A DNA stretch of 64,000 nt from Daejeonella sp. (GTDB taxonomy: Bacteria > Bacteroidota > Bacteroidia > Sphingobacteriales > Sphingobacteriaceae): assembly GCA_035631395.1 (NCBI GenBank), contig DASQIU010000045.1, forward strand, positions 12,521-76,520. Reading direction: 5' to 3'. The notes below the pieces were generated by a model. It was not told the DNA's origin, searched no databases, and saw only the letters and a program-made list of their open reading frames with translations. Made by a program: the position numbers and the translations under genes. Within the stretch, counting starts at the first letter, position 1, and each line of letters opens with the position of its first letter. Positions 4,171 through 62,991 of the stretch are shown here, one piece after another.

Positions 4171-4179
4171 TGGCGAATA

Positions 4180-4602
4180 TTAAATCGAATACTTTTCAAT
4201 CATCTCTTCAGTCACCCGCATTCCGCGTCCGGTTTGGGTATTGATCAAAACGTAATTAAACCAGCCATCGCAGCAAACCTTGTTGGTCTTTTTATTCTTG
4301 ATCTCAAATGTTACCCGGCATCCTTTGGTATTAAGGGTTTCTATGCCTGTTTCTACGGTAAAAACATCGCCTAAACCTAAAGGGCGTTTATAATCTACAA
4401 AAGCTGATCGGACCACCCAGCCATATCCCTGGGCTAAAAAATCTTCCATGGGCATTTTGTAGTAATTTTCCATTTGCTCATAGCGGGCGGCCAGCACATA
4501 GTCAAAATAAATACTGTTATGCACATGGTTAAACATGTCTATATCATCTGGCCTTACCTTAAATTCGCTGGTAAAACGGCTGTATTTTTGTTCGGTTTCC
4601 AT
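4180..4602 (-). CDS. hotdog-fold thioesterase family protein
   Basis: 140 aa. FKVRPDDIDMFNHVHNSIYFDYVLAARYE matches the 4HBT-type thioesterase pattern. Confidence 0.7.
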   Translation of the reverse strand: METEQKYSRFTSEFKVRPDDIDMFNHVHNSIYFDYVLAARYEQMENYYKMPMEDFLAQGYGWVVRSAFVDYKRPLGLGDVFTVETGIETLNTKGCRVTFEIKNKKTNKVCCDGWFNYVLINTQTGRGMRVTEEMIEKYSI

Positions 4603-8798: not shown

Positions 8799-9680
8799 TT
8801 AACCCAACTTTACTGAAGTCATTGTTAAAGAACCGCCTACCGCTTTATCATTAAAGAACGAAACTTCGTCTTTAGTTCCTTTTAAGCCCAAAGTATAAAG
8901 CAATGGCAAATAATGCTCCAATGTTGGAATGGCCAGTCGGGCTTCTGGTCCCAGAGTTTGGTAATTAATAAGCGCCTGATGATTACCGTTGGCAATCAGA
9001 TCTTTAAAACGCTCATTTAATTGTAGCGCCCAATCATAACCAAATTCCGGAGCGCTAATTTTATCCCAGGCCACCATACGCAGATTGTGCACCATATTAC
9101 CGCTGCCAATAATCAATACGCCTTTTTTTCTTAAACTATACAGTTCTTTAGCCAGATCATAATGATATTGCGGGTCTTTGCCATAGTCAATACTTAATTG
9201 TAGCACCGGAATATCTGCCTTAGGATACATATGTCGTACCACAGTCCAGGTACCATGATCTAAACCCCAATCATGATCTAATTCTACAGATGTAGATTTA
9301 AACAATGCTGCAGTTTCCCGAGCCAGTTCCGGGCTTCCGGGAGCTGGATAAACAACGTCGAACAAAGCTTTAGGGAATCCACCAAAATCATGGATCGTTT
9401 CCGGAAACTGCATGGCGGTTATCCGCGTGCCACTGCTTAACCAGTGGGCCGAAACCACCAAAACCGCTTTGGGAACCGGTATTTCCTGCGCCATTTTAGT
9501 CCAACCCTGCGAAAAAGCATTGTCCTCAATCCCATTCATGGGAGAACCATGCCCAATAAACAGAACCGGCATTAAATACCCATTCTCTGTTAAGCTATCT
9601 GTAAACTTATTAAATGCTGATATACTTGTCATTCCTATTCCTCCTAATATGAGCGTTTTGATGAAATTTTTTCTTTTCAA
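8799..9680 (-). CDS. class III extradiol dioxygenase, 4,5-DOPA dioxygenase (YgiD)-like
   Basis: 293 aa. N-terminal signal-like segment, then PVLFIGHGSPMN, VVSAHW, ETIHDFGGFP and YPAPGSPELA, as in YgiD-family proteins. Confidence 0.8.
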   Translation of the reverse strand: MKRKNFIKTLILGGIGMTSISAFNKFTDSLTENGYLMPVLFIGHGSPMNGIEDNAFSQGWTKMAQEIPVPKAVLVVSAHWLSSGTRITAMQFPETIHDFGGFPKALFDVVYPAPGSPELARETAALFKSTSVELDHDWGLDHGTWTVVRHMYPKADIPVLQLSIDYGKDPQYHYDLAKELYSLRKKGVLIIGSGNMVHNLRMVAWDKISAPEFGYDWALQLNERFKDLIANGNHQALINYQTLGPEARLAIPTLEHYLPLLYTLGLKGTKDEVSFFNDKAVGGSLTMTSVKLG

Positions 9681-9902
9681 ATCGGTATCAATTGTTTTAC
9701 CAATAGACTATTAATATATGTAGTCTTAATTTCTTTACAAAGATAGGGAGCCAATTACCCGAATCCATTGATTTAGATTAAGAAAAGACACTGAATCCGG
9801 CGAAGCGTGACTGTTAAGAGGAAGTAGTCTTTGGAAGGTCCAGAATAAAGCTTGACATTCCCTAAAACAGAGAATACCCAACGAAGCATAAATGCCTGTG
9901 GT

Positions 9903-10484
9903 CTATTTTTTAAAGGTGATTTTTTTGCGGATCCGGCTCAAAGTTTCTGGAGCAATGCCCAGATAAGAGGCTATTAAATGTTGCGGAAAACGATGGATAA
10001 TATCCGGATAGGTACTTAATAGTTTCAGATATTTTTCTTCCGTAGAATAACTTAAAGAACTCAAAATGCGGCTTTGCAAGGCAATTAAGCTATTTTGCAT
10101 TAAAATACGCAGATAGCGCTCCATTTTGGGCACTTTTAGCACCATGCTTTCATAATCCGGCAGGCTTAATAACAAGATTTCGCTATCCTCCAGCGCATCA
10201 ATCATATAGCTGGAAGGTTCGGAAGTGAAAAAGCTGTAATTATCAGAAATCCACCAGCCTTCTAAAGCAAACTGAACAATATGTTCATGCCCTTTATCGT
10301 CGATGGTATAGGAACGTAAAGCCCCTTTTTCAATAAATACTACATATTTACAAACTTCGCCGGCCTGCAGAAAATATTGTTTTTTACGAAGCTTTTTAGG
10401 AGTAAAAAAGGGTTTAATACTTTCCTGTTCTTCAGGAGAGAGACTTATTTTTTCATCGATTTTTTGAAACAATATCTCAAACAT
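9903..10484 (-). CDS. Crp/Fnr-family transcriptional regulator
   Basis: 193 aa. cNMP-binding-like N-terminal domain and a C-terminal HTH (LIASYLGIAPETLSRIRKK). Confidence 0.8.
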   Translation of the reverse strand: MFEILFQKIDEKISLSPEEQESIKPFFTPKKLRKKQYFLQAGEVCKYVVFIEKGALRSYTIDDKGHEHIVQFALEGWWISDNYSFFTSEPSSYMIDALEDSEILLLSLPDYESMVLKVPKMERYLRILMQNSLIALQSRILSSLSYSTEEKYLKLLSTYPDIIHRFPQHLIASYLGIAPETLSRIRKKITFKK

Positions 10485-10510
10485 AGATTAAAAAGCTTGC
10501 ATCTAATTTA

Positions 10511-10541
10511 AGAAAAAGTACAGGGCCAAGAGCTCTGTACT
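10511..10541 (-). terminator. terminator hairpin after the nucleoside-recognition gene
   Basis: On the minus strand, the agtacag/ctgtact stem is followed by a T-run. Confidence 0.45.
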
Positions 10542-10584
10542 GAAAGGATCCTTCATTCTATGAACACATTTTTTCCGCCATATG

Positions 10585-10622
10585 AATTAATGCAAATTCG
10601 TTTACTTCGTGCAATTGGTTTT
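10585..10622 (+). repeat. partial copy (3' module) of the dispersed intergenic repeat
   Basis: gcaaattcgtttacttcgtgcaattggttttt resembles attcgtttaattcgtgcaagtaatgttttt at 7590-7620. Confidence 0.5.
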
Positions 10623-11866
10623 TATTTGATCGTTGCCCCAAAAAACAAATAAGAAATAATAATGGCGGCAATAACTCCGGCTAATTCGGCCAATAAGGCG
10701 CAAGGCAGGGCATGCCTTAATCTTTTAATAGAAACTGATCCGAAATAGACAGCCAGCACATAAAAAGTGGTTTCGGTTGATCCCTGGATTACACAGGCTA
10801 CCCGTGAAGCAAAATCATCGGCTCCTTTGGAATTCATTAAATCAACCATCAGACCGCGGGCGCCGCTGCCGCTTAGCGGTTTCATCATGGCAACCGGTAA
10901 AGCCTGCACAAAACTGGTATCTACACCAAACAGTCCGAAGAAAGAACCAACTCCCTGCACCACATAATCCATGGTGCCCGAAGCACGAAAAACACCTACG
11001 GCAACTAAAATCCCAACTAAATAAGGAATAATTTTTACGGCCACTTCAAAACCTTCCTTAGCGCCTTCTATAAAGGTTTCATAGACATTGATCTTTCGAA
11101 CCAGGGCCAGTACAATAAAGGAGACAATGATACCATACAACATCACATTGCCCGCTACTTTAGAAATGATAGCGATCTGGTCTTGCTGTAGGGTGGAAAA
11201 ATAATAGAGGATGCCACCAATAATGGCAACTAAACCGCCCAAATAAGTAATAATAGTTTTTTGCAGCAGGTTAATTTTTTGATAAACCGCTACCGCGATT
11301 AAGCCGGTAATAGTTGAAAAGAACGTGGCCAGCAAAATGGGAATGAATACATCTGAAGGATCTATGGCACCCGCTTCTTTGCGGTAGGCCATGATACTAA
11401 TGGGGATCAGGGTTAGGCTGGAGGCATTGAGTACCAGAAACATGATCTGGGCATTGGTAGCCGTGTCTTTATTAGGATTCAGCTCCTGCAATTCCTTCAT
11501 GGCTTTTAGCCCCACCGGCGTAGCGGCATTATCCAGCCCCAGCATATTAGCCGAAAAGTTCATTAAAATAGAGCCGTAGGCCGGATGATCTTTGGGAACT
11601 CCAGGGAATAGTTTTTGAAAAAAGGGACCCACAGCCCGGGAAAAAACCTGGATCATACCACCTTTCTCGCCAATTTTCATAATTCCCAGCCAAAAAGCCA
11701 TTAAACCGGCCAGTCCCAACGAAATTTCGGCCCCGGTTTTGGCGCTGTCAAACGTCCCGCTGACTATTTTTTGGAATATATCGTAATCCTGAAAAACAAT
11801 TAATTTAAAAAGGGCAACCGCAAAGGTGGTGAGGAAAAATGCAATCCAGACGTAATTCAGAGCCAT
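10622..11866 (-). CDS. nucleoside recognition domain membrane protein (fused SpmA/SpmB-like)
   Basis: 414 aa and polytopic. The N-terminus MALNYVWIAFFL...GAEISLGLAGLMAFWLGIMKIGEKGG resembles SpmA/SpmB-type proteins. Confidence 0.7.
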   Translation of the reverse strand: MALNYVWIAFFLTTFAVALFKLIVFQDYDIFQKIVSGTFDSAKTGAEISLGLAGLMAFWLGIMKIGEKGGMIQVFSRAVGPFFQKLFPGVPKDHPAYGSILMNFSANMLGLDNAATPVGLKAMKELQELNPNKDTATNAQIMFLVLNASSLTLIPISIMAYRKEAGAIDPSDVFIPILLATFFSTITGLIAVAVYQKINLLQKTIITYLGGLVAIIGGILYYFSTLQQDQIAIISKVAGNVMLYGIIVSFIVLALVRKINVYETFIEGAKEGFEVAVKIIPYLVGILVAVGVFRASGTMDYVVQGVGSFFGLFGVDTSFVQALPVAMMKPLSGSGARGLMVDLMNSKGADDFASRVACVIQGSTETTFYVLAVYFGSVSIKRLRHALPCALLAELAGVIAAIIISYLFFGATIK

Positions 11867-11919
11867 ATATTAGAAATGGAGGTTTTTTTTGTTGTTCGTA
11901 AAAAGTTCAGCCGCGTAAA

Positions 11920-13107
11920 TTAGAAGTTTTTGTTTGTTATTCGGCCATTTTCTATCGATAAAATTGTAGAAAAACCATCTTGAAGTATAAAATCGGCCGG
12001 CTGCTGATGCTCTAAAGGCCGGGTCAGGATGAATTTATAAGAGCTGGCATCTAAAGTTTCATAACCAAAATAGTTTTCCAGGTCCCCCAGATCTTCTACC
12101 AGGTAGGTATAAGAAACAGAACGACGATCATTATTTAACTCCTGCAGCGCAATCAAACCAATATCACTTTGGTAGCTGATGGTTCCTAAATTGATCTGGG
12201 CATTTTTGATCAGGATGTGAAAATGGCGCTTATCATTTTGGGGGATTATTGAGTAATCCGCTTCGGTTTCCTGTTGATAGGTATTATTGGCAATACATTC
12301 TAATCCCGATAGGATGGCCCGGAAGATAAATTTACGAATATGCTGTTTTTCCGGATCATGGGCATAACTGCCTGCTTCGATCAAAATGGTGCTGGTGCCA
12401 GCTGCCTGAAAATTATCGCCAAAGGCCCGGGATTCATACTCATCACTAAATCGGGCGGTATGATTGGGTAAAACCTGTTGCAGCTTTTTATAAGTATAGC
12501 TGATGACTTGCATGGCTTTCTGCCGAACCGGATTTACGGAAACGGCCTCATCAAAAGGAGGGGCCAGTAGAGAAATTGTTGCGGGCAAGCCACTTTTTCC
12601 CGCCGACCAAACCGGACCCTGATCGTGCAGATTAAAGCCAAATTCCGGCTGTATTTCATCCCGGAGTTTACGCAATAAGCGACCTTCAGGACTTTGCTGA
12701 TGCTTAAAATCTCGGTTAATATCTATTCCCTGTGCATTGCGGCGTGTAAAAATCTCAGCTCCATCCGGGTTTACCATGGGTAAGATGTATAAGGTGCAAT
12801 TTTCTAAAATAGCCTGACGCAAGGGATTAAACTCATCATCGGCTACTAAAAAATTGAAAAAATCAAATAAAGCCATGGTTGCTGTTGGCTCATCGCCATG
12901 CATCTGGCTCCATAAAAAAATGCGTTTTTTACCGGTTCCAACTTTCACCAGAGAGATGGAACGTCCTTCTACCGATTGGCCAACCTCCCTTAAATGAAAT
13001 ATTTCCGGATTTAATTTTTTTAATAGATTTTGCAGATCGGCATGCTTGAAAAAACGGTTATTCAGAGCGCTTTCGCGATATTGTTCAAAACGGGTGATTA
13101 TTTCCAT
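11920..13107 (-). CDS. M14-family zinc carboxypeptidase
   Basis: WSQMHGDEPTAT (HxxE zinc site) and MVNPDGAEIFTRRNAQGIDINRDF. Start trimmed to MEIITRF because the track N-terminal extension runs into a dispersed repeat copy. Confidence 0.75.
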   Translation of the reverse strand: MEIITRFEQYRESALNNRFFKHADLQNLLKKLNPEIFHLREVGQSVEGRSISLVKVGTGKKRIFLWSQMHGDEPTATMALFDFFNFLVADDEFNPLRQAILENCTLYILPMVNPDGAEIFTRRNAQGIDINRDFKHQQSPEGRLLRKLRDEIQPEFGFNLHDQGPVWSAGKSGLPATISLLAPPFDEAVSVNPVRQKAMQVISYTYKKLQQVLPNHTARFSDEYESRAFGDNFQAAGTSTILIEAGSYAHDPEKQHIRKFIFRAILSGLECIANNTYQQETEADYSIIPQNDKRHFHILIKNAQINLGTISYQSDIGLIALQELNNDRRSVSYTYLVEDLGDLENYFGYETLDASSYKFILTRPLEHQQPADFILQDGFSTILSIENGRITNKNF

Positions 13108-13126
13108 AACGCCGCTAATGTAGAAA

Positions 13127-13262
13127 TTTGTGAGGACGTTTGTCGTTTTTCGTCCATCCTCTATCACTTTCTCTTATGAATTCGGATACTTCTTGAAATT
13201 CGTTCTTTTTGTCTTATCGACTAAGAATTTGTGTGAATTCGTCTAATTCGGTGTTTATCTCA
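13127..13262 (+). repeat. dispersed intergenic repeat, copy C (5' and 3' modules)
   Basis: Shares the exact 17-mer gtcgtttttcgtccatc with the copy at 16255-16424. Shares gaattcgtctaattcg with the reverse complement of 26775-26792. Confidence 0.65.
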
Positions 13263-13290
13263 TAAAAAAAGGCTGCCTTTTGGGCAGCCC
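13263..13290 (-). terminator. rho-independent terminator after the S9 peptidase gene
   Basis: The minus strand reads gggctgcccaaaaggcagcc followed by ttttttt. Confidence 0.7.
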
Positions 13291-13311
13291 GTGCTATTAA
13301 TATTTGATTTT

Positions 13312-16161
13312 TTATTTATCGGCAGCTTGAGGGGTGGCAATTTCAAAACCCCAGTTACGGCCTTTTTCTGTGGCTGGAACGCCTTTTTCCATCCATACCG
13401 GAGCTGGTTTTCCTTTCAGGTAATGATCAAAAAACTGTTGTTCGCGGATCTGGATATCTTTTCTGTTCTGACGTAAAACCAGGTTATGAGCTTCATTATT
13501 ATAGTTCAGCATCCAAACCGGTTTACTCAGACGGCGCAAGGCAGTGAACATTTCAATACCCTGATACCATGGTACGGCTCCATCGGCATCATTGGCCATA
13601 ATTACTACCGGAGTATTTACATTCGGTAAATGGAATAAAGGTGAGTTTTCGATATATAACTCGGGTTTTTCCCATAAAGTAGCACCAATGCGGCTTTGTG
13701 TTTTCTCATATTGAAACTGACGGTTCATACCAGTTTCCCAACGAATACCACCATACGCCGAAGTCATGTTTACTACCGGAGCGCCGGCCCAGGCTGCAGC
13801 ATACATATTGGTTCGGGTAATGAGGTGCGCTACCTGATAACCGCCCCAGCTTTGACCCTGGATACCGATTTTGCTGCCATCTACCCAAGGATTCTTTTTT
13901 AAGGCTTCTACTCCTGAATTGATAAATTCTTCAGCAGAACGACCCGGATAACCGGTTTCATAGCTGATATCGGGTGTGAAAACCAGGTAACCATTACTCA
14001 CAAAATAAGTGATATTTAAGCGAGATGGAGTAGGCGCCGGAGCCGTATAATTATATAAACCGTCTGATACCTTCTCATAGAAGTAAACGATCATCGGGTA
14101 TTTTTTTGCCGGATCAAAATCCTCAGGTTTATATAAAACACCTTCGGATGTATAGCCTTTTGGCGTAGTCCATTTAACCAGTTCGGCGGTACCCCAGTTG
14201 TAATTGCTTTGCTGTGGGTTGGTGGCGCTTAATTTGGTTTCTTTTTTGAAATCAGCAGAAATGTAAACATCAGGTGAAGCCTGGAAGTTGGATTTTTCAT
14301 AGATCATTACCACTGCATTGCCGGCTTGCTCGGCACGTGTGTAATTGTATTTATCCATGATCACCAGCTCCGGATTTTTCTGATCACTGATGTTCTTTTT
14401 GTACCAGCCATTTTCTTTGGATACGTTATTAAAGGCTTCCAGCCATAAAGGCTTCTGCGAATTAATAAAGCGCTCTTTAGAATTGAGGCTGTTGTATCTG
14501 AAAGTAATTTTCTGAGCTCTGCCTATTCCGTTGGTCAGGTTTTTATGCTGGCCATTTTCCGGGTTGAAGCTCCAGATATCATAACGATCGTAAATCAAAA
14601 CGTTTTGGTCATTTTGAGTCCAACCGGCCTGGCCGTAAGGGCTAGGATCATCGGGTACATCATTATCTTCCTGATAAAACTTGATATCCATGCCGGCATT
14701 TAAATGAACCTGTTTGCCACCTTTTACTGAATAGGCATACCAGTTGCTATTGGCCCGGTCATACCAGGTAACATAGCTTGCATTAGGCGACATGCTGGCA
14801 AAACCACGAACTTTTGAAGCAATTTGTTTGCGACTTCCATCAATGGTAGAAACCAGGTAAATATTCCGTTGGGTAGAACCCGTCCATTGCATTTCTACGC
14901 GGTTGCCAAAATCGGTGCTTGCTAAAGCAAACTCAGCATTTCCTTCATTGCCCAATTGTACATCGGTTACTTGCTCATCGGCCAATTGAATTATTTTGGA
15001 AGAAGCTGCTTTAGGGTAAATTACCGCCATATAGTTGCGCTTCAGATCACGATCCAGGTTTTTCAACTGCATAGGTTGCAGATAATCATCCTTATAGTTC
15101 CAGATATCTACTTTGGCTACTTCAAAATCAACAATGGTGGTGTCTTTAGGCGCCTGAATAGGGGCGGTGCCGAAAAACAGTTTTTCGCCATTTTTGCTGA
15201 AGGAGATTTTTCCATCGCCGCTAATGCTCCATTTGGTTGGCATACCTGAGGTACTGCGGTCGGCAATAACGCGGGCGCTATCTTGTCCGGAGCTGAAATA
15301 ATATAGTTTGTAGAATTTCTGTAAGGCTTTAGCCGGATCCTTTTCTGAAGCAAAGGCTAATTGGCTGCCGGTTTCGTCAAAGGCCAGGTTTTTATACTGA
15401 CCTTTTCCAGAACTGATTTTAGTTAAATGAGCTTTTTCAATATCATAGAGATATAAACCAGGAAGATTTTCAGTGTCTTTTTTGGCTCCGGTGCTTACAA
15501 AGGCAAGCAGTTTGCCATTTTTGCTCAGAATATAATCGGTTACATATTTAAAGGTTTTTTCCTGACCGCTTTTCAGATTGCGAAGTGTCAGATCAGTACC
15601 TTCGGCAGCAGCCGTAGCAGAACCTCCTTCATCATCAGCAAAATAGAAATCAGCATCTACTTTACCTTCCGCTTTCTTCTTAGCGGTATCGGCCGCAGGA
15701 GCTTTATCCAATAAATAAGCCACATAGCCGGAAGCTTTTTCAGGTAGTTTGTATGATTTTACCCGACCAACTTTCCAAACGGCGCTGGTTTCCAGACTTA
15801 CAATGCCCAGACTGTCTTTGGGCATATTGTCGGCTTTGGCTTTTTTAATTTTCGCCTGACGGGTTTCCTTATAAAAAGGCTTAATCAGGAAAACAGAGAA
15901 TTTAGAATCTTCTGTAAACTGAGCAGCAGGAACCCGGGGAACTGTTAAGGACTTTTTGTTTTTCAGGTTCGAAATAACCAGTCGGGCATCGCCTTCCTGC
16001 TGAGCTACGGAATACATAGCCCAAAGTCCGTCATTGCTGATTCGTTTGCTGGCAATGCTTTCCCAGCTATCGTAAACTGAATGATCTAAAGGCTTCTTCG
16101 ACTGGGCTAATACCCAAGCCGGTAAAGAAGCGATTGTGAAAAAAAGTATGAGTTTTCTCAT
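13312..16161 (-). CDS. S9-family serine peptidase with N-terminal beta-propeller region
   Basis: 949 aa. Signal peptide; nucleophile elbow GIQGQSWGGYQ; C-terminal alpha/beta hydrolase region with DADGAVPW and EAHNL. Confidence 0.85.
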   Translation of the reverse strand: MRKLILFFTIASLPAWVLAQSKKPLDHSVYDSWESIASKRISNDGLWAMYSVAQQEGDARLVISNLKNKKSLTVPRVPAAQFTEDSKFSVFLIKPFYKETRQAKIKKAKADNMPKDSLGIVSLETSAVWKVGRVKSYKLPEKASGYVAYLLDKAPAADTAKKKAEGKVDADFYFADDEGGSATAAAEGTDLTLRNLKSGQEKTFKYVTDYILSKNGKLLAFVSTGAKKDTENLPGLYLYDIEKAHLTKISSGKGQYKNLAFDETGSQLAFASEKDPAKALQKFYKLYYFSSGQDSARVIADRSTSGMPTKWSISGDGKISFSKNGEKLFFGTAPIQAPKDTTIVDFEVAKVDIWNYKDDYLQPMQLKNLDRDLKRNYMAVIYPKAASSKIIQLADEQVTDVQLGNEGNAEFALASTDFGNRVEMQWTGSTQRNIYLVSTIDGSRKQIASKVRGFASMSPNASYVTWYDRANSNWYAYSVKGGKQVHLNAGMDIKFYQEDNDVPDDPSPYGQAGWTQNDQNVLIYDRYDIWSFNPENGQHKNLTNGIGRAQKITFRYNSLNSKERFINSQKPLWLEAFNNVSKENGWYKKNISDQKNPELVIMDKYNYTRAEQAGNAVVMIYEKSNFQASPDVYISADFKKETKLSATNPQQSNYNWGTAELVKWTTPKGYTSEGVLYKPEDFDPAKKYPMIVYFYEKVSDGLYNYTAPAPTPSRLNITYFVSNGYLVFTPDISYETGYPGRSAEEFINSGVEALKKNPWVDGSKIGIQGQSWGGYQVAHLITRTNMYAAAWAGAPVVNMTSAYGGIRWETGMNRQFQYEKTQSRIGATLWEKPELYIENSPLFHLPNVNTPVVIMANDADGAVPWYQGIEMFTALRRLSKPVWMLNYNNEAHNLVLRQNRKDIQIREQQFFDHYLKGKPAPVWMEKGVPATEKGRNWGFEIATPQAADK

Positions 16162-16254
16162 ATTATCTAGGTGATTTTTTAATAAAGCTAAATATGCTGA
16201 ATTTCTGATAGAAGATGCGGATAGCTATTAAAAATATTACAATGGGTGGATGGT

Positions 16255-16424
16255 GTTGATTGTGAATCGTCCGTCGTTTTTCGTCCATCGTCTCTTTTGC
16301 TTATCGGTTGATGGTTTTGACGTTTAATTGATCCCGAAAAATCACTAATCCTAATTCAGACAATTTAACCTTAGGCAAAATCAATTCGTGTTCATTCGTC
16401 AATTCGTAAAATCAGTGTTTATAA
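16255..16424 (+). repeat. composite dispersed intergenic repeat, full copy B
   Basis: Same three modules and order as 7463-7620. The exact 21-mer aatcctaattcagacaattta is shared. Confidence 0.7.
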
Positions 16425-16452
16425 AAAAAGCTGCCTTTGTGGGGGCAGCTTC
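16423..16452 (-). terminator. rho-independent terminator after yidC
   Basis: The minus strand reads agctgcccccacaaaggcagct followed by ttttttt. Confidence 0.7.
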
Positions 16453-16471
16453 TCATCTTTAATTTTAATTT

Positions 16472-18304
16472 TTATTTTTTCTTGGTGGCAGCTTGTTGTT
16501 GCTGTTGGCGCATATAGTCTTCCATGCGTTTTTGGAAACCACCTTTCTTTTTCTCTGAAGTAGGTTTCTTTTTATTTTCCTGGATTTGGGCGTGGATTTT
16601 GGTATCGTCCACAAACATGCGAATGATATATTGCTGAGCAAAAGTTAACATGTTGGCCAGGAAATAGTAATAGTTTAAGCCGGCTGGATAGCTGTTAAGC
16701 ACTCCGAAGAAAATAATCGGGGTAATATAACCGATATATTTCATTTGGCCGGTTGCCCCTGAAACCTGGTTATTGAAATAGGTATAAATCAGCGTAGAAA
16801 TGGTCATCAGCACGCACATTAAACTGATATGATCTCCTAAAAATGGTAATGAAAAACCTAATTTGATAAATCCATCATAGGTTGATAAATCATTCATCCA
16901 CAGGAAACTCTCCTGGCGTAATTCAAACAAGTTAGGGAAGAAGAAGAAGAAGGCCATGATGATTGGCAATTGCAATAACATCGGCAAACAACCTCCCAGC
17001 GGATTTACTCCGGCCTGTTTGTACAGTTTCAGGTATTCCTGTTGTAAAAGGGTAGGGTTATCATCGCCAACTTTGGTCTTGATCTCTTCCATTTCAGGTT
17101 TTAAAACCCGCATTTTGGCCATAGAGAGATAAGATTTATAAGTAAGCGGGAATAAAACCACTTTTAACAGGATGGTTAAGGCCAGAATAATCCAACCATA
17201 ATTCCAGTTAAAACCTTGCAGGAAATCAAAAATAGGCAGTACCGCAAAACGATTGATATATTTTAAAGGCCAGTAACCCAAATCAATTTGTTTCTCAATT
17301 TCATAGCCCTGTGCTTTTAAAGTGTTGAATTTATTAGGGCCGAAATAAAACTCCATCGGATAAGTGCTCATATCCTGACGGCTAAATGGCAATTGCATAT
17401 TGGCCTTAAATCCTTTTACCACATCTTTTTGAGGCAAAGTATTTACAGCAATGGTGCTACCTTTATCAAATCCGTTTTTGGCAACCAGTACATTAGAGAA
17501 AAAGTGCTGTTTGAAGGATATCCATTGGATATTGTCATCGCTCAGATCTTTTTTATCATCTTTAGATACGCTTAAATGGTCAACGGAACCACTTACTGAT
17601 TTGAAATAAGCTGTAGAATAGCGGTGCTCACTAGTAATATCTTTTTCTTTTTGTTTTAAGATGGCTTCCCAATTCAGAATCAAGTGTTGTTGGGTAGGAA
17701 CAATCACATCCTGCATTCCTTTGGTTACAATGGTAAAGCCTACTTTATAGCTATCGCCTTTTAAAGTATAGATATAATCGATGTATTTCCCTTCGGCATA
17801 GCTCAAACGCATGGTCAATGAGCTGGAATCCTGGTTACTAACGCTCAGTGAAGGAACTGAAGACTGGAAATACAGATCGTTGGTATTAATATTCTTACCG
17901 GCAGCGCCAAAAACTAAACCGAATTTGCTGTCAGCCTCATCAAACATTACCACAGGTTTCTGGTCGAATGTTTTGTATTTTTTTAAGAGTACCGAAGCAA
18001 CGCGTCCGCCTTTAGGGCTGATACTTATTTTTACTAAATCATTTTCTAAGATAACAGGCGTATTGCTGCCGCCATGTGCCGCTCCAAAAGGGCCAGTTAA
18101 AACAGCAGAATCAATAGCTACCTTGGCCATACGGGTGGTATCCAGCGTGGCTGCTTTTGCCGGTTGTTTGTCGGCAACCCGGGCAATGGAGTCTTGAACT
18201 TCTCTTTCTCTTTTAATCTCCTGCTCTGAGGGTTTCAGGAAAAATGTAGAGCCTACTAAAATGATCAGGATCAAAAAGAGGCCTGTAAACGTATTTCTAT
18301 CCAT
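16472..18304 (-). CDS. yidC: membrane protein insertase YidC
   Basis: 610 aa. Long periplasmic domain and a conserved C-terminal core (GGCLPMLLQLPIIMAFFFFFP). Lies next to pyrG, as in many Bacteroidota. Confidence 0.92.
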   Translation of the reverse strand: MDRNTFTGLFLILIILVGSTFFLKPSEQEIKREREVQDSIARVADKQPAKAATLDTTRMAKVAIDSAVLTGPFGAAHGGSNTPVILENDLVKISISPKGGRVASVLLKKYKTFDQKPVVMFDEADSKFGLVFGAAGKNINTNDLYFQSSVPSLSVSNQDSSSLTMRLSYAEGKYIDYIYTLKGDSYKVGFTIVTKGMQDVIVPTQQHLILNWEAILKQKEKDITSEHRYSTAYFKSVSGSVDHLSVSKDDKKDLSDDNIQWISFKQHFFSNVLVAKNGFDKGSTIAVNTLPQKDVVKGFKANMQLPFSRQDMSTYPMEFYFGPNKFNTLKAQGYEIEKQIDLGYWPLKYINRFAVLPIFDFLQGFNWNYGWIILALTILLKVVLFPLTYKSYLSMAKMRVLKPEMEEIKTKVGDDNPTLLQQEYLKLYKQAGVNPLGGCLPMLLQLPIIMAFFFFFPNLFELRQESFLWMNDLSTYDGFIKLGFSLPFLGDHISLMCVLMTISTLIYTYFNNQVSGATGQMKYIGYITPIIFFGVLNSYPAGLNYYYFLANMLTFAQQYIIRMFVDDTKIHAQIQENKKKPTSEKKKGGFQKRMEDYMRQQQQQAATKKK

Positions 18305-58600: not shown

Positions 58601-58716
58601 ATTTTGGAAAAATCCTTCGAGGGAAAGATTTGGACTTGTATTTTAAGTCGGCAAAGGTAGGATTTCGAGTGGCATGAATTGTGGATTGGATTTCATTTTT
58701 GGGATCAGGATTCGGG

Positions 58717-59050
58717 GATTTTAGGAGTAAAGGACTTATTAGCAGATAAACATCAGCGCAATCCTTTATGCAGTTTAATCAGTGGTCGGGATTAGGATTT
58801 ATTGGATTTTAGGATTAAAGGATCTATTAGCAGATAAACATCAGCGCAATGCAGTTTAATCAGTAGTCGGGATTAGGATTTATTAGCAGATAAACAATCA
58901 ATGTAATCCTTTAATCTGCTTAATCAGCGGCTCAGACTATTTGCTCATTTGATTAAAGGATTTATTAGCACATAAATAATCAGTGTAATCCTTTAATCTG
59001 CTCAATCAGTGGTTCAGACTATTTAATCAGTGGTCAAAATCAGTTTAATC
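58717..59050. repeat. degenerate tandem array, about 4 units of ~80-85 bp
   Basis: The core attagcagataaaca.ca.g.aatcctttaat..g.ttaatcag.gg recurs at ~58738, ~58826, ~58882 and ~58964. It also contains a 12-bp inverted pair, aatcctttaatc / gattaaaggatt. Confidence 0.75.
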
Positions 59051-59109: not shown

Positions 59110-60483
59110 ATGTCATTACATCCTTCTCATTCTACCGATACCATTGTTGCCCTGGCTACTCCTTCCGGAAGCGGAGCCATCGCAGTCATCAGGCTTTCCG
59201 GTCCGCAGGCCATTGATATCATCAATCAGGTTTTTAAGGGGAAAGACCTAAGCAAACAGTCCTCGCATACCATTCATTTTGGTACCATCCGCGATGGGGA
59301 AACGATTTTGGATGAGGTGCTGGTTTCTTTGTTTGTGGCCCCGCATTCATACACCAAAGAGAATGTGGTAGAAATATCTACCCACGGCTCAAAATATATT
59401 ATCGAAAGCATCATCCGGCTGCTGATAAAACAGGGGGCTCGGGCGGCCAAACCCGGCGAATTCACCTTAAGGGCTTTTTTAAATGGAGCCATGGATCTTT
59501 CTCAGGCCGAAGCGGTTGCCGATCTGATTGCTTCCAACTCTCAGGCTTCGCATCAGATGGCCATGCAGCAAATGCGGGGCGGATTCTCTCATGAACTGAG
59601 CGCCTTGCGGGAGCAGTTGATCCACTTTGCTTCCATGATAGAACTGGAGCTGGATTTTGGTGAAGAAGATGTGGAATTTGCTAACCGCGATGACCTGAAA
59701 GGCCTGATATTCCAGATCAACAAGATCTTGCACCGGCTGATTCAGTCTTTTGAGCAAGGAAATGTGTTGAAAAACGGTGTTCCGGTGGTGATTGCCGGAA
59801 AACCCAATGTGGGCAAATCTACCTTGTTAAATGCCTTGTTGAACGAGGAACGGGCCATTGTATCGGATATTCCGGGCACTACCCGCGATACCATTGAAGA
59901 TGAGATGAATATCCGGGGTATCCATTTCCGTTTTATTGACACGGCCGGAATCCGTCATACCGAAGATATTATTGAAGCCAAAGGAGTAGAGCGCACCCAC
60001 GAAAAGATTCGTTTGGCCAAACTGATTATTTACCTGATTGATCCTGAACAAAGTACCCAGGAAATCCATCAGCAAATAGATTATTTAAACGAACTGCAAA
60101 TTCCATTTGTGGGCGTGGTGAATAAAATGGATCTGTTAAACGGCAGCTTCCGCAATGAATTCAGTGAGGCCGGATTCAGTTTTATTTCTGCCCGGAATAA
60201 GGATGGAATTGAGGAATTAAAAGATACCATATTACATAAAGTAAATCTTCATAAAATCAATTCTGATGATGTGCTAGTGAGTAACATACGCCATCTGGAA
60301 GCGCTTCAAAAAACGGAAGAATCCCTGAACCGGGTTCTGGAAAATATCGACAACCCAGTTAGTTCCGATTTCCTGGCCATGGACATCAAACAGGCCCTGC
60401 ATTATCTGGGTGAAATCACCGGAACGGTTACTACGGATGACTTGCTGGAGAATATTTTTAGCAAGTTTTGTATTGGGAAATAG
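59110..60483 (+). CDS. mnmE: tRNA modification GTPase MnmE (TrmE)
   Basis: 457 aa. DTIVALATPSGSGAIAVIRLSG, G1 motif GKPNVGKSTLLNAL, and the C-terminal FCIGK. Confidence 0.96.
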   Translation: MSLHPSHSTDTIVALATPSGSGAIAVIRLSGPQAIDIINQVFKGKDLSKQSSHTIHFGTIRDGETILDEVLVSLFVAPHSYTKENVVEISTHGSKYIIESIIRLLIKQGARAAKPGEFTLRAFLNGAMDLSQAEAVADLIASNSQASHQMAMQQMRGGFSHELSALREQLIHFASMIELELDFGEEDVEFANRDDLKGLIFQINKILHRLIQSFEQGNVLKNGVPVVIAGKPNVGKSTLLNALLNEERAIVSDIPGTTRDTIEDEMNIRGIHFRFIDTAGIRHTEDIIEAKGVERTHEKIRLAKLIIYLIDPEQSTQEIHQQIDYLNELQIPFVGVVNKMDLLNGSFRNEFSEAGFSFISARNKDGIEELKDTILHKVNLHKINSDDVLVSNIRHLEALQKTEESLNRVLENIDNPVSSDFLAMDIKQALHYLGEITGTVTTDDLLENIFSKFCIGK

Positions 60484-60542
60484 TTGCATACAAATAGATA
60501 TAGCTAGATATTAATAGATCAACATAGGGTGTTGGCAAAGGT

Positions 60543-60579
60543 GAGCCGATTATTTTGATTAATCGGCTCATTTTTTTTA
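60543..60579 (+). terminator. rho-independent terminator after mnmE
   Basis: gagccgatta / taatcggctc is a 10-bp stem followed by tttttttt. Confidence 0.75.
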
Positions 60580-60587
60580 TATATTTG
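60580..60587 (+). promoter_or_regulatory. candidate -7 box (TAtaTTTG) for the Fic gene
   Basis: Matches TAnnTTTG, 30 nt upstream of the Fic ATG and immediately after the mnmE terminator. No well-spaced -33 TTTG is present. Confidence 0.3.
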
Positions 60588-60616
60588 AGTTGATTGTTTT
60601 AATTAATCGGCTCAAG

Positions 60617-61714
60617 ATGTATAATTGGCAACATAAAGAATGGCCTAAGTTTACTTACTCGATAGAAAAATTGCAAGAAATAGCAGTTTTGTTTGCACAG
60701 GAATTTGGCTTAGTAAATGGTTTAGTGTTGGGTTTAAATGAAGAACTCAAGCAAGAGGCTGTACTGGAGATTCTAATAGCAGAAGCGATTAAGACTTCGG
60801 AAATTGAAGGAGAATACATGAGTAGGGAAGATGTAATGTCTTCTATTAAAAATAACTTAGGCATAAAACCTGCTGTTTTAGTAAAGGATAAAAGAGCTTC
60901 GGGTATTGCAAAGCTGATGCTGGAAGTTAATCAAGACATTGATCAATTATTGGACCTCGAAAAAATATGCAATTGGCATAAAATTTTAATGGAATATGAT
61001 CCAAAGGTGAATGCAGGCGAATGGCGTAAAGGGGCTGAACCAATGCAGGTAGTTTCAGGAGCTTACGGTAGAGAGATTGTTCATTATGAAGCGCCACCAT
61101 CGGAAAATGTTCCTGCCGAAATGGAAAATTTCATGGAATGGTACGCTTACTCAGAGTTACCTGTTAAAGATCCTATTTCTAAAGCTTTGTTAAAGTCGGC
61201 TATTGCACATTTGTATTTTGAAACCATTCATCCATTTGAAGACGGTAACGGTAGGATTGGGCGAGCTTTAGCCGAATTTACACTTTCTCAAAGTTTAAAA
61301 AGTTCGGTATTACTTTCGATTTCAAAAATTATCGAAAAGGAAAAAAACAAGTATTACGAAGAGCTGAAATATGCACAAAGGAGTTTAGATGTTACTGATT
61401 GGATTAATTACTTTGTTCAGCTGATATTAGATGCCCAAAAGGATTCTAAAGAATTGATACAGTTTACACTGAAAAAGGCGAAATTTTTTGATCAATATTC
61501 TGTTAAACTTAATGAACGCCAGCTGAAAGTGATTCAGCGGATGCTGGAAAATGGCGCAGCTGGTTTCCAAGGTGGTATGACTGCTAAGAAATATATAGCG
61601 ATTACCAAAACATCAAAGGCAACGGCAACAAGAGATATGCAAGAGCTTCAGGGAATGGGTGTTTTTGCTAAAGAAGGTGCCGGGAGATCGGTGCGCTATG
61701 AATTGGTTTTGTAG
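60617..61714 (+). CDS. Fic-family protein (N-terminal DUF4172-like region, Fic core, C-terminal wHTH)
   Basis: The active site HPFEDGNGRIGRAL is a perfect HxFx(D/E)GNGRxxR. TSEIEG upstream fits the [ST]xxxE[GN] inhibitory motif. Start trimmed to MYNWQHKEWPKF. Confidence 0.9.
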   Translation: MYNWQHKEWPKFTYSIEKLQEIAVLFAQEFGLVNGLVLGLNEELKQEAVLEILIAEAIKTSEIEGEYMSREDVMSSIKNNLGIKPAVLVKDKRASGIAKLMLEVNQDIDQLLDLEKICNWHKILMEYDPKVNAGEWRKGAEPMQVVSGAYGREIVHYEAPPSENVPAEMENFMEWYAYSELPVKDPISKALLKSAIAHLYFETIHPFEDGNGRIGRALAEFTLSQSLKSSVLLSISKIIEKEKNKYYEELKYAQRSLDVTDWINYFVQLILDAQKDSKELIQFTLKKAKFFDQYSVKLNERQLKVIQRMLENGAAGFQGGMTAKKYIAITKTSKATATRDMQELQGMGVFAKEGAGRSVRYELVL

Positions 61715-61800
61715 GTGAGTTGTTTGGTTAAACTATGGCACTATCAATATAGAATCGGAATTAGGAAGACACAGGCGGCACACGTGCGTTAGCAAAGGGG

Positions 61801-61964
61801 AATCCCTCACCCCGGTACTGGAAAATATCGACAATCCGGTTAGTTCCGATTTCCTGGCCATGGATATTAAACAGGCCCTGCATTACCTGGGAGAAATTAC
61901 CGGAATGGTTACTACGGATGATTTGCTGGAGAATATTTTTAGTAAGTTTTGTATTGGGAAGTAA
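61801..61964 (+). pseudogene. detached duplicate of the mnmE 3' end (54 codons plus stop)
   Basis: Translates in frame as [54 protein letters not shown]. The mnmE end reads [54 protein letters not shown]. No upstream coding continuation is present. Confidence 0.85.
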
Positions 61965-62090
61965 AGGCGGAAAGTCAAATAGAAAATTCAACTTTTCGAA
62001 TATTAGATGGTTGCCGAATTGAAGATAGTGGACATTAGCAACAGTGCACATACGACCGATAGAGGATAGTATTTAAGTGAAAAAAATAAA

Positions 62091-62828
62091 ATGACAAGAA
62101 TGAAAGCGTTTTATGATTGGTATGATGAAATTTTAGTGCATATTCGAGAAAATGGTTTAAGAAATTTATCAGAATATGAGTACAATGGAGCAAATCCATT
62201 CTCTACTTTTACTGATATAACTAAATCTAAACAAAGTTTAAAGGATTTTTCTTATTCCGATTTCAAACATGGCGATGAATTCCAGTTCTTGTCTATGGAT
62301 TTAATTTATGCCATATCGATTATAGAACTTTTGCACCCTAAAATAAATGATGCTGTCAACGAAGATGGCACTTACATGCAAACTGTAGAAGATCATATTT
62401 ATTTGAGGTATGCGGGTTATGCCCTTCAGACAATTTATTCTTTTTGGGATAGGATAGGAGATTTTTTAGACATCTTCTATGAGACGAAGCAGAAAAATGA
62501 TATATACATATCACGAGTATTTCAAAGATTTCCAGAAGAACACCGCTCTAACACCTTCGAAAAATTAAAAAAATTATATGAGGATAATGTATTACCCATT
62601 TTGGAAGAAAGGCATCAAGTCGTACATGGTTTCACTTTAAAGGGAAGATATTATTGGGAAGTTATAGAATATGGCAGAGAGAATCCAGATAAACTAAAAG
62701 CCTTACAAGAAGAAAAAAGTTCATACCCTAACACATTTAGAAAACAACTTGATTTTATGTTTGAAGGTTTTCGATTGGCATTAACACTCGTTTCTGAATT
62801 ACCAAATAAGGAGATTAATATATGTTAA
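62091..62828 (+). CDS. hypothetical protein with an Rx4H motif (HEPN-like, possibly Cthe_2314-type)
   Basis: 245 aa, AT-rich and all-helical in appearance. ILEERHQVVHGF contains R-x4-H, preceded by FWDRIGDFL. The family assignment is from memory of HEPN family descriptions, not from a search. Confidence 0.45.
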   Translation: MTRMKAFYDWYDEILVHIRENGLRNLSEYEYNGANPFSTFTDITKSKQSLKDFSYSDFKHGDEFQFLSMDLIYAISIIELLHPKINDAVNEDGTYMQTVEDHIYLRYAGYALQTIYSFWDRIGDFLDIFYETKQKNDIYISRVFQRFPEEHRSNTFEKLKKLYEDNVLPILEERHQVVHGFTLKGRYYWEVIEYGRENPDKLKALQEEKSSYPNTFRKQLDFMFEGFRLALTLVSELPNKEINIC

Positions 62829-62903
62829 CTGAGCTGTTCTTCGATATGTTTTGCAAGGTATATCTAAGAACAGATAAAAGGGATTCAATCTTTAGAATAA
62901 CCG

Positions 62904-62936
62904 AGAAATGGTTCAAGCGTCCAGCTTGAGCCATTT
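62904..62936. terminator. hairpin between the convergent HEPN-like and DUF885 genes
   Basis: gaaatggttcaagc / gcttgagccatttc is a 14-bp stem with one G-U-type mismatch. The T-run is weak. Confidence 0.4.
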
Positions 62937-62991
62937 CTTCATGAAAAGTGCCAGTTTATTGCTTTTAGCTTATCAAGTAGAAGCCCTACAA

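Follow-up and report, generated by a model that had tools for sequence, protein, structure and literature searches.

A Fic gene between two diverged copies of the mnmE 3′ end: a candidate decayed islet at a putative attachment site of Bacteroidota integrases

We analysed a 64,000-nucleotide stretch of DNA assigned to a Daejeonella sp. (assembly GCA_035631395.1, contig DASQIU010000045.1, positions 12,521 to 76,520 of the forward strand), hereafter the window, in which a gene of the Fic family lies between two copies of the 3′ end of mnmE. The working mnmE gene (59110–60483, + strand) encodes an intact tRNA modification GTPase of 457 amino acids, with Pfam matches to TrmE_N, MMR_HSR1 and MnmE_helical and 82% identity to its best relative. 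Its last 54 codons and stop codon (copy 1, 60319–60483, +) recur as copy 2 (61800–61964, +). Read from left to right, the interval holds a 58-nt post-stop spacer (60484–60541, +), a control region containing two palindromes, the Fic gene (60617–61714, +) and a second spacer of 85 nt from the Fic stop to copy 2 (61715–61799), for which we found no homologue and no significant fold. The source organism is a Sphingobacteriaceae-like lineage that has been seen only once.

A repeat search of the 6 kb examined (58–64 kb) returned one 164-nt direct repeat (60319–60482 and 61800–61963; 91% identity, spacing 1,481) and no other long repeat. Compared base by base over the 165 nt that include the stop codon (60319–60483 against 61800–61964), the copies align gaplessly and differ at 16 positions (90.3% identity). 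Thirteen of these, counting the TAG and TAA stop codons, fall at codon position 3; the other three fall at codon position 2 and change N to T, R to P and T to M. Similarity sets in abruptly at 60319/61800 and ends with the stop codon, while gapped local alignments of the sequences outside either end do no better than shuffled controls. Chance cannot account for such a repeat, and Rfam and TRF gave no match in the same 6 kb. The original prediction, made from the sequence alone, is borne out in these respects: it had described a gapless 164-bp duplication with about 16 mostly third-position mismatches, three amino acid changes (N/T, R/P and T/M) and an abrupt start in both copies, and the self-comparison it proposed yields a single, significant direct repeat. 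The antisense shadow open reading frames (ORFs) that it had taken to echo the duplication, 60274–60489 and 61761–62051, are also both present, with similar protein strings.

Using the Nei–Gojobori method, we estimated synonymous and nonsynonymous divergence between the copies at dS 0.44 and dN 0.024 (dN/dS 0.055), and the share of differences at third positions (13 of 16) departs from the one third expected (P = 1.2e-4). Most of the divergence therefore accrued while both copies were parts of working mnmE genes. The two copies share a serine in the motif PVSSDF, where the relatives listed have threonine, and their third positions are 76% identical, compared with about 50% to other species, which points to a related lineage as the source of the second copy. 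Two copies from separate but related lineages in turn disfavour a simple duplication in place. Copy 2 has no in-frame start and carries its R>P and T>M changes at conserved residues: the proline occurs only in copy 2, at a site where 49 of 79 compared relatives have arginine, and the methionine matches none of the 40 relatives listed. Both residues are consistent with later decay, and the second mnmE end is a non-coding remnant, not a gene.

For comparison, we assembled the mnmE surroundings of 80 Sphingobacteriales and Cytophagales species with 8-kb flanks (1.3 Mb in total; loci numbered L001 onwards), together with 27 metagenome loci carrying homologues of the Fic gene (L081–L107). A tBLASTn search of the 80 mnmE loci with the C-terminal 74 amino acids of MnmE found no second long copy in any relative.

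The Fic protein comprises DUF4172 and Fic domains (Pfam) and matches the PADLOC model for SoFic over nearly its full length (E = 1e-49). Its translation contains both hallmarks of class II Fic proteins, the HxFx(D/E)GNGRxxR motif as HPFEDGNGRIGR and the inhibitory (S/T)xxxE(G/N) motif as an intact N-terminal TSEIEG, and its start codon is supported by homologue alignment. In domains, motifs and profile it resembles the SoFic single-gene anti-phage defence system and class II Fic AMPylases. Upstream lies a first palindrome (60537–60575, +; arms 60542–60552 and 60560–60570, followed by T8) that forms a terminator-like hairpin and is probably an operator; its fold reaches −21 kcal/mol (z −6.5) and it also scores as an intrinsic terminator. 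The 8-nt box TATATTTG (60580–60587) then overlaps a second palindrome (60586–60614), which stops 2 nt short of the Fic ATG (60580–60614 for the whole, +). This second palindrome was found in the repeat search (fold −12.8 kcal/mol) and falls below the threshold of our stringent scan, which allowed at most one mismatch between arms.

Five metagenomic Fic loci in unrelated contexts resemble the window at the DNA level from exactly 60542, where the palindrome TGAGCCGATTA..TAATCGGCTCA starts, to the Fic stop. Homologues of the Fic gene are generally preceded by two palindromes, one near −78 and one near −33 relative to the ATG, which flank the TATATTTG box. The consensus upstream of DUF4172-Fic (SoFic-type) genes is TGAGCCGAWTA-N3-9-TAWTCGGCTCA, with the second palindrome ending at the start codon, and the stringent scan recovered both palindromes in 19 of the 27 Fic loci. 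In L098 and L099 both palindrome boxes are changed together, to TGAGTTATA/TATAACTCA. As the same twin palindromes precede Fic homologues in unrelated contexts, the hairpin and box are predicted to be the Fic family's own conserved control region, and palindromes and gene together look like a self-contained, autoregulated module. The original prediction had seen in the interval only a terminator, a promoter-like box and a Fic gene, with no integrase; the Fic gene and the missing integrase stand, whereas the terminator and box as separate features give way to the twin-palindrome region. We found no description of twin palindromes upstream of SoFic-type genes in the literature searched.

The Fic gene is predicted to be horizontally acquired, defence-type cargo. 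None of the 27 metagenome Fic loci has mnmE nearby, and in five further contexts the Fic homologue is a lone gene amid housekeeping genes with no flanking repeats, so the duplication is not a property of the Fic module. Adjacency of mnmE and Fic recurs only in L053 (Mucilaginibacter arboris; 9372–17055), where, 21 nt past the mnmE stop, there begins a Fic homologue that is 57% identical to that of the window and has the same twin palindromes. Encoded further along are an HsdS-like protein, a YhcG nuclease, HipA_2 with DUF3037 and an SF1 helicase. L053 thus holds a defence-type island at the mnmE site, which extends past the 8 kb retrieved. As a separate observation, two metagenome loci that are 94% identical differ in the Fic gene itself: relative to L082 (4945–5952), L106 (6093–6580) has 489 unrelated bp in place of the ~1-kb Fic body, so that just the palindromes and the gene's first 92 nt are left.

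We found that 20 of the mnmE loci carry an ORF of 365–405 amino acids just downstream of mnmE, often preceded by a small ORF. Pfam identifies the larger ORFs as Arm-DNA-bind_5, Phage_int_SAM_5 and Phage_integrase proteins, that is, tyrosine integrases, and the small ORF as HTH_17. By tBLASTn, an integrase or its remnant lies 150–1,660 bp past the mnmE stop, always co-oriented, in 21 of the 80 loci (L003, L015, L021, L022, L026, L028, L031, L032, L035, L039, L042, L044, L049, L050, L055, L060, L066, L074, L075, L078 and L080), and an HTH_17 protein precedes the integrase in 16. The same integrase family was found nowhere else in the 1.3 Mb of loci.

Scanning downstream of mnmE on the same strand with a degenerate pattern of its terminus, TTYTGYATHGGNAARTRR, we recovered this core with no mismatch in five loci (L005, L027, L038, L044 and L068) and with one mismatch in a further locus (L069); the control scan of upstream regions on both strands gave one zero-mismatch match. 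These six species have islets of 1.1–7.4 kb closed by a repeat of the last ~17–20 nt of mnmE, and the closing remnants each end in a stop codon and have similar right-end sequences just before them. L044 holds a complete 7.4-kb element encoding HTH_17, the integrase, a second HTH_17, a D5-type primase-helicase and a DUF6371 protein. No integrase is encoded in the other five islets, whose cargo is mostly of toxin or defence type: AbiEii with DUF6922 in L005 (at +5.5 kb downstream of mnmE), a hydrolase and a truncated HTH_17 in L027 (2.7 kb), a split HipA in L038 (2.25 kb), two XRE HTH proteins in L068 (1.17 kb) and DUF6602 with PIN in L069 (2.5 kb). Two viral contigs matched the mnmE end; one contains the full mnmE, and the other, from IMG/VR, starts in the last 45 codons of mnmE and continues into an integrase element laid out like that of L044. 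Neither carries a long mnmE mimic. Together, these comparisons indicate that the mnmE terminus is a regular attachment (att) site in Sphingobacteriales and Cytophagales, at which integrase-less islets are apparently common; the literature searched yielded no account of mnmE serving as such a site in Bacteroidota. Separately, in L051 (Sphingobacterium sp. UBA1575; 9138–9361) the mnmE 3′ end matches the query as two overlapping pieces in different frames, which is either a frameshift or an assembly error in a metagenome-assembled genome. Downstream lie ORFs of 504 amino acids (DNA methylase-like) and 829 amino acids (helicase-like), both so described by eye, and a distant Fic homologue (36% identical by tBLASTn).

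The window was compared with this family of sites. Both copies match the terminal core TTYTGYATHGGNAARTRR and end in a stop codon: copy 1 in AAGTTTTGTATTGGGAAATAG (60463–60483, +), which encodes ..KFCIGK*, and copy 2 in AAGTTTTGTATTGGGAAGTAA (61944–61964, +). The sequence after the working stop resembles the left arm of the integrase-bearing element in L015, whose integrase lies at +190 past the mnmE stop: in fixed register 31 of 40 positions match, compared with a median of 12 over 79 loci, and the first 43 nt of the 58-nt spacer align by blastn at 79% identity (E = 4.6e-6). Classes of post-stop similarity that cross genera almost always include integrase-bearing loci. This pattern suggests that the left junction of the window is canonical.

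Recurrent use of the site in relatives, a core at the end of both copies and the left-arm likeness after the working stop led us to read 60484–61799 as a decayed, integrase-less genomic islet at the attachment site that tyrosine-integrase elements of Bacteroidota use in the last ~18 bp of mnmE, a reading we consider slightly more likely than not. The integrase-less islets closed by the core in other species, the foreign origin of one copy and the low GC of 60484–62950 speak for it as well. Several observations weigh against it. The left-arm similarity rests on one species pair (L015 and L051), which share 176 nt after the stop and then diverge, so this stretch could be native intergenic sequence. 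The repeat of 164 nt is about nine times as long as the ~17–20 nt of the six comparison islets, and since the family's att repeat comprises only these last nucleotides (about three codons plus the stop), it is not an ordinary att repeat. The family's right-end motif (about GTAACTGAYAATCAA) is absent near 61700–61964, where mnmE-like sequence takes its place, as is, near copy 2, the arm-like motif TTGTACC found at the right end of one subfamily. Searching the 64-kb window by tBLASTn and with a hidden Markov model (HMM) built from 17 integrases, we found no integrase of the mnmE-site family, nor does an HTH_17 gene paired with an Arm-DNA-bind_5/SAM_5/Phage_integrase gene follow mnmE in the window. 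The Fic module occurs elsewhere alone and without flanking repeats, and its presence here could be an independent insertion. Finally, the closest mnmE product among 5.8 billion proteins is only 82% identical and no close relative is in the databases: the window's mnmE and Fic proteins are both singletons, with next best matches at 82% and 85% identity, respectively.

Against this background, the proposal that an element had integrated site-specifically into the mnmE 3′ end holds for the att site in relatives and the cores at both ends, but not for the 164-nt repeat as an ordinary att repeat, nor for the right end. The further suggestion that the element carried a long copy so that the gene would stay intact is not supported, as family elements supply only about three codons and a stop and 164 nt would be unneeded. 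Its description of a decayed islet or one mobilised in trans fits a recurrent state, five of six core-closed islets being integrase-less, and the recombinase search it called for found family integrases beside mnmE in the relatives and none in the window.

On the reading we favour, recombination in the terminal core would have produced the left junction, attL, and copy 1 would thus be native up to its last few codons. Copy 2 would be a 164-nt piece of a related lineage's mnmE that arrived with the incoming DNA, either by being excised imprecisely from a previous host and reinserting via the core or the 164-nt homology, or through a one-sided homologous recombination event, and it would have been decaying as non-coding DNA since its arrival. 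As cargo it carries a SoFic-type Fic gene that is self-contained, bringing along a twin-palindrome control region of its own. With the integrase and the family right-end sequences missing, the islet is probably immobile today; at best, it might move with help in trans or by homologous recombination.

Composition and gene content change across this region. GC content is 0.29–0.40 from 60484 to ~62950, with a local rise to 0.43–0.46 at copy 2, and is ~0.45 in the surroundings. Between copy 2 and a DUF885 core gene lies a second low-GC accessory gene, encoding a HEPN_Cthe2314 protein with an RxxxxH motif (62091–62828, +; Pfam; GC about 0.30), which PADLOC does not match and for which none of the 80 relatives has a homologue close to mnmE. 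This gene may stem from a second islet or from imported DNA. The low-GC region ends at a strong hairpin (62903–62939; −28.3 kcal/mol, z −6.1) that separates the convergent HEPN and DUF885 genes. None of the 80 relative loci shares any of the MFS, EEP, HEPN or DUF885 neighbours of the window. On the other side of mnmE, in the intergenic region that separates it from a divergent MFS transporter gene (58716–59030), are about four tandem-like units of 81–88 bp that are pairwise 89–97% identical; TRF was silent here and Rfam gave no match.

An arrangement like that of the Escherichia coli elements e14 and phage 21 at icd would place the crossover elsewhere. There, according to a preprint (bioRxiv 10.64898/2026.06.14.732165, citing Hill et al. 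1989), a long, diverged 3′-end duplicate brackets the element, with e14 lying between icd, which extends into the prophage, and the C-terminal pseudogene icdC. The differences are mostly synonymous. Applied to the window, the element would have brought a working 164-nt mnmE end and recombined at the 5′ edge of the homology, in the shared GAATCCCT (60319–60326); copy 1 would then be the element-borne end that completes mnmE, and copy 2 the displaced native end, followed by native DNA. A functional substitute end would fit the dN/dS of 0.055, all three amino acid changes sit in the non-functional copy 2, and beyond the eight identical nucleotides at the 5′ edge four mismatches cluster within 10 nt, a pattern that would be expected close to a core. 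Yet all att evidence from relatives locates the crossover within the final ~18 nt of mnmE, its extreme 3′ end, and not at −164, a region that encodes a variable part of MnmE and is ill suited as a conserved target; what follows the copy 1 stop is similar to an element left arm, which in L015 starts at the stop; and the 64-kb window lacks an integrase of the family. The e14 element itself keeps its integrase and excises, and its element-borne copy is the one fused to the gene. We regard this geometry as unlikely, though worth retaining.

Homology-facilitated illegitimate recombination could have produced the locus with no site-specific step, through one homologous and one illegitimate crossover with DNA of a related species. 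The import would have been either an mnmE 3′ fragment with the HEPN gene or a whole mnmE with Fic, leaving a stray mnmE end, of donor or recipient, at the joint 61799/61800. The abrupt 5′ start of copy 2 and the missing right-end motif agree with this, a dS of 0.44 implies a donor of a related species, the HEPN gene after copy 2 is also low in GC, no third mnmE remnant was found after that gene, and Fic modules elsewhere stand alone with no att-like repeats. The similarity to the L015 left arm is left unexplained, however, as is the fact that the event hit a proven att hotspot precisely and that the homology runs out at the stop codon, unless islets pre-existed there, and the mechanism is one documented in naturally transformable bacteria; we judge such an import rather improbable. 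Had the mnmE end been duplicated locally, in tandem fashion, and the spare copy then drifted, the lineage-specific serine in PVSSDF would be accounted for, but a drifting spare should change equally at all codon positions, contrary to the third-position excess and low dN/dS, and the sequences after the two copies are unrelated; this scenario is disfavoured and scarcely credible. The lineage is known from a single 80-kb contig, and two populations differing downstream of mnmE are plausible, from which a metagenome assembler might have joined the related strains mnmE-Fic and mnmE-HEPN. A chimeric join within a shared segment would give one copy, however, not two 1.3 kb apart, the joint 61799/61800 offers no shared sequence for an assembler to pivot on, and runs of N are absent, which makes an artefact very unlikely.

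Among known systems, islands of the type of SGI1 (Salmonella genomic island 1) and MGIVchHai6 use the same target in Gammaproteobacteria, trmE (= mnmE/thdF), and leave the gene intact. In E. coli K-12 (L114), mnmE ends in TTCTGTATTGGTAAGTAA (4176–4193), which we take to be the SGI1 attB position; it fits the Bacteroidota core and aligns to window positions 60466–60483. The same 18 bp encoding FCIGK* thus appear to be targeted in two phyla. In the full elements of Bacteroidota, an integrase and an HTH_17 gene lie beside mnmE, although in another host phylum and with integrases of Arm-DNA-bind_5 and SAM_5 architecture. The window mnmE ORF is complete and the islet begins at its stop, as in SGI1-type islands, and both copies end in the 18-bp core. 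SGI1 itself has 18-bp imperfect repeats at its ends, and the one termed DRR is the last 18 bp of thdF (PMC3285670; PMC5704250), whereas the repeat in the window extends to 164 nt. The int/xis genes that SGI1-type islands carry at the mnmE-proximal end, their backbone of replication, mobilisation and activator-responsive genes and the resistance genes of SGI1 are all missing from the window islet, where the interval holds only Fic. With no integrase and no backbone, the islet is not a member of the SGI1 family: of the comparison with SGI1 in the original prediction, the target site fits and the rest is analogy only.

Decayed elements that retain attL and attR are termed cis-mobilizable elements (CIMEs; PMC5704250), remnants of integrative and conjugative or integrative and mobilizable elements such as those related to ICESt1. 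The window islet and those of L005, L027, L038, L068 and L069 resemble them, and in the window cores are present at both ends and the integrase is absent. One difference is that the right end of the window islet lacks the family's arm-like motifs; cis-mobilisation by accretion with an incoming element, a feature of CIMEs, would be conjectural here. To judge by its sequence, the window islet looks like a CIME whose right repeat is unusually long.

A broader joint reading, which we offer tentatively and consider improbable as a whole, would make the last 18 bp of mnmE, with their universally conserved FCIGK* tail, a cross-phylum attachment hotspot reached independently by unrelated integrases: SGI1 Int in Gammaproteobacteria and the Arm-DNA-bind_5 family in Sphingobacteriales and Cytophagales. 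The Bacteroidota site would be serviced by small elements of 7–12 kb with an integrase, an AlpA-like protein and a D5-type primase, and mini-islets without an integrase, each bearing one toxin or defence gene (SoFic, HipA, AbiE or PIN), would be moved in trans, and the 164-nt repeat would be an adaptation to, or a fossil of, integrase-free interspecies homologous recombination.

For the annotation of the locus, the analysis settles that copy 2 is a remnant, that Fic is acquired cargo and that the hairpin and box are the control region of Fic, at the strength given above for each. The window islet is of a known kind and a slightly atypical example of it; the main interest lies in the recurrent integrase family at the mnmE terminus. 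About one quarter of the sampled Sphingobacteriales and Cytophagales species have an integrase element at the 18-bp mnmE terminus that also serves SGI1 in enterobacteria. The mnmE terminus therefore offers a simple, conserved landmark for locating mobile and defence islets in these genomes, and its use may reflect convergent target choice across phyla.

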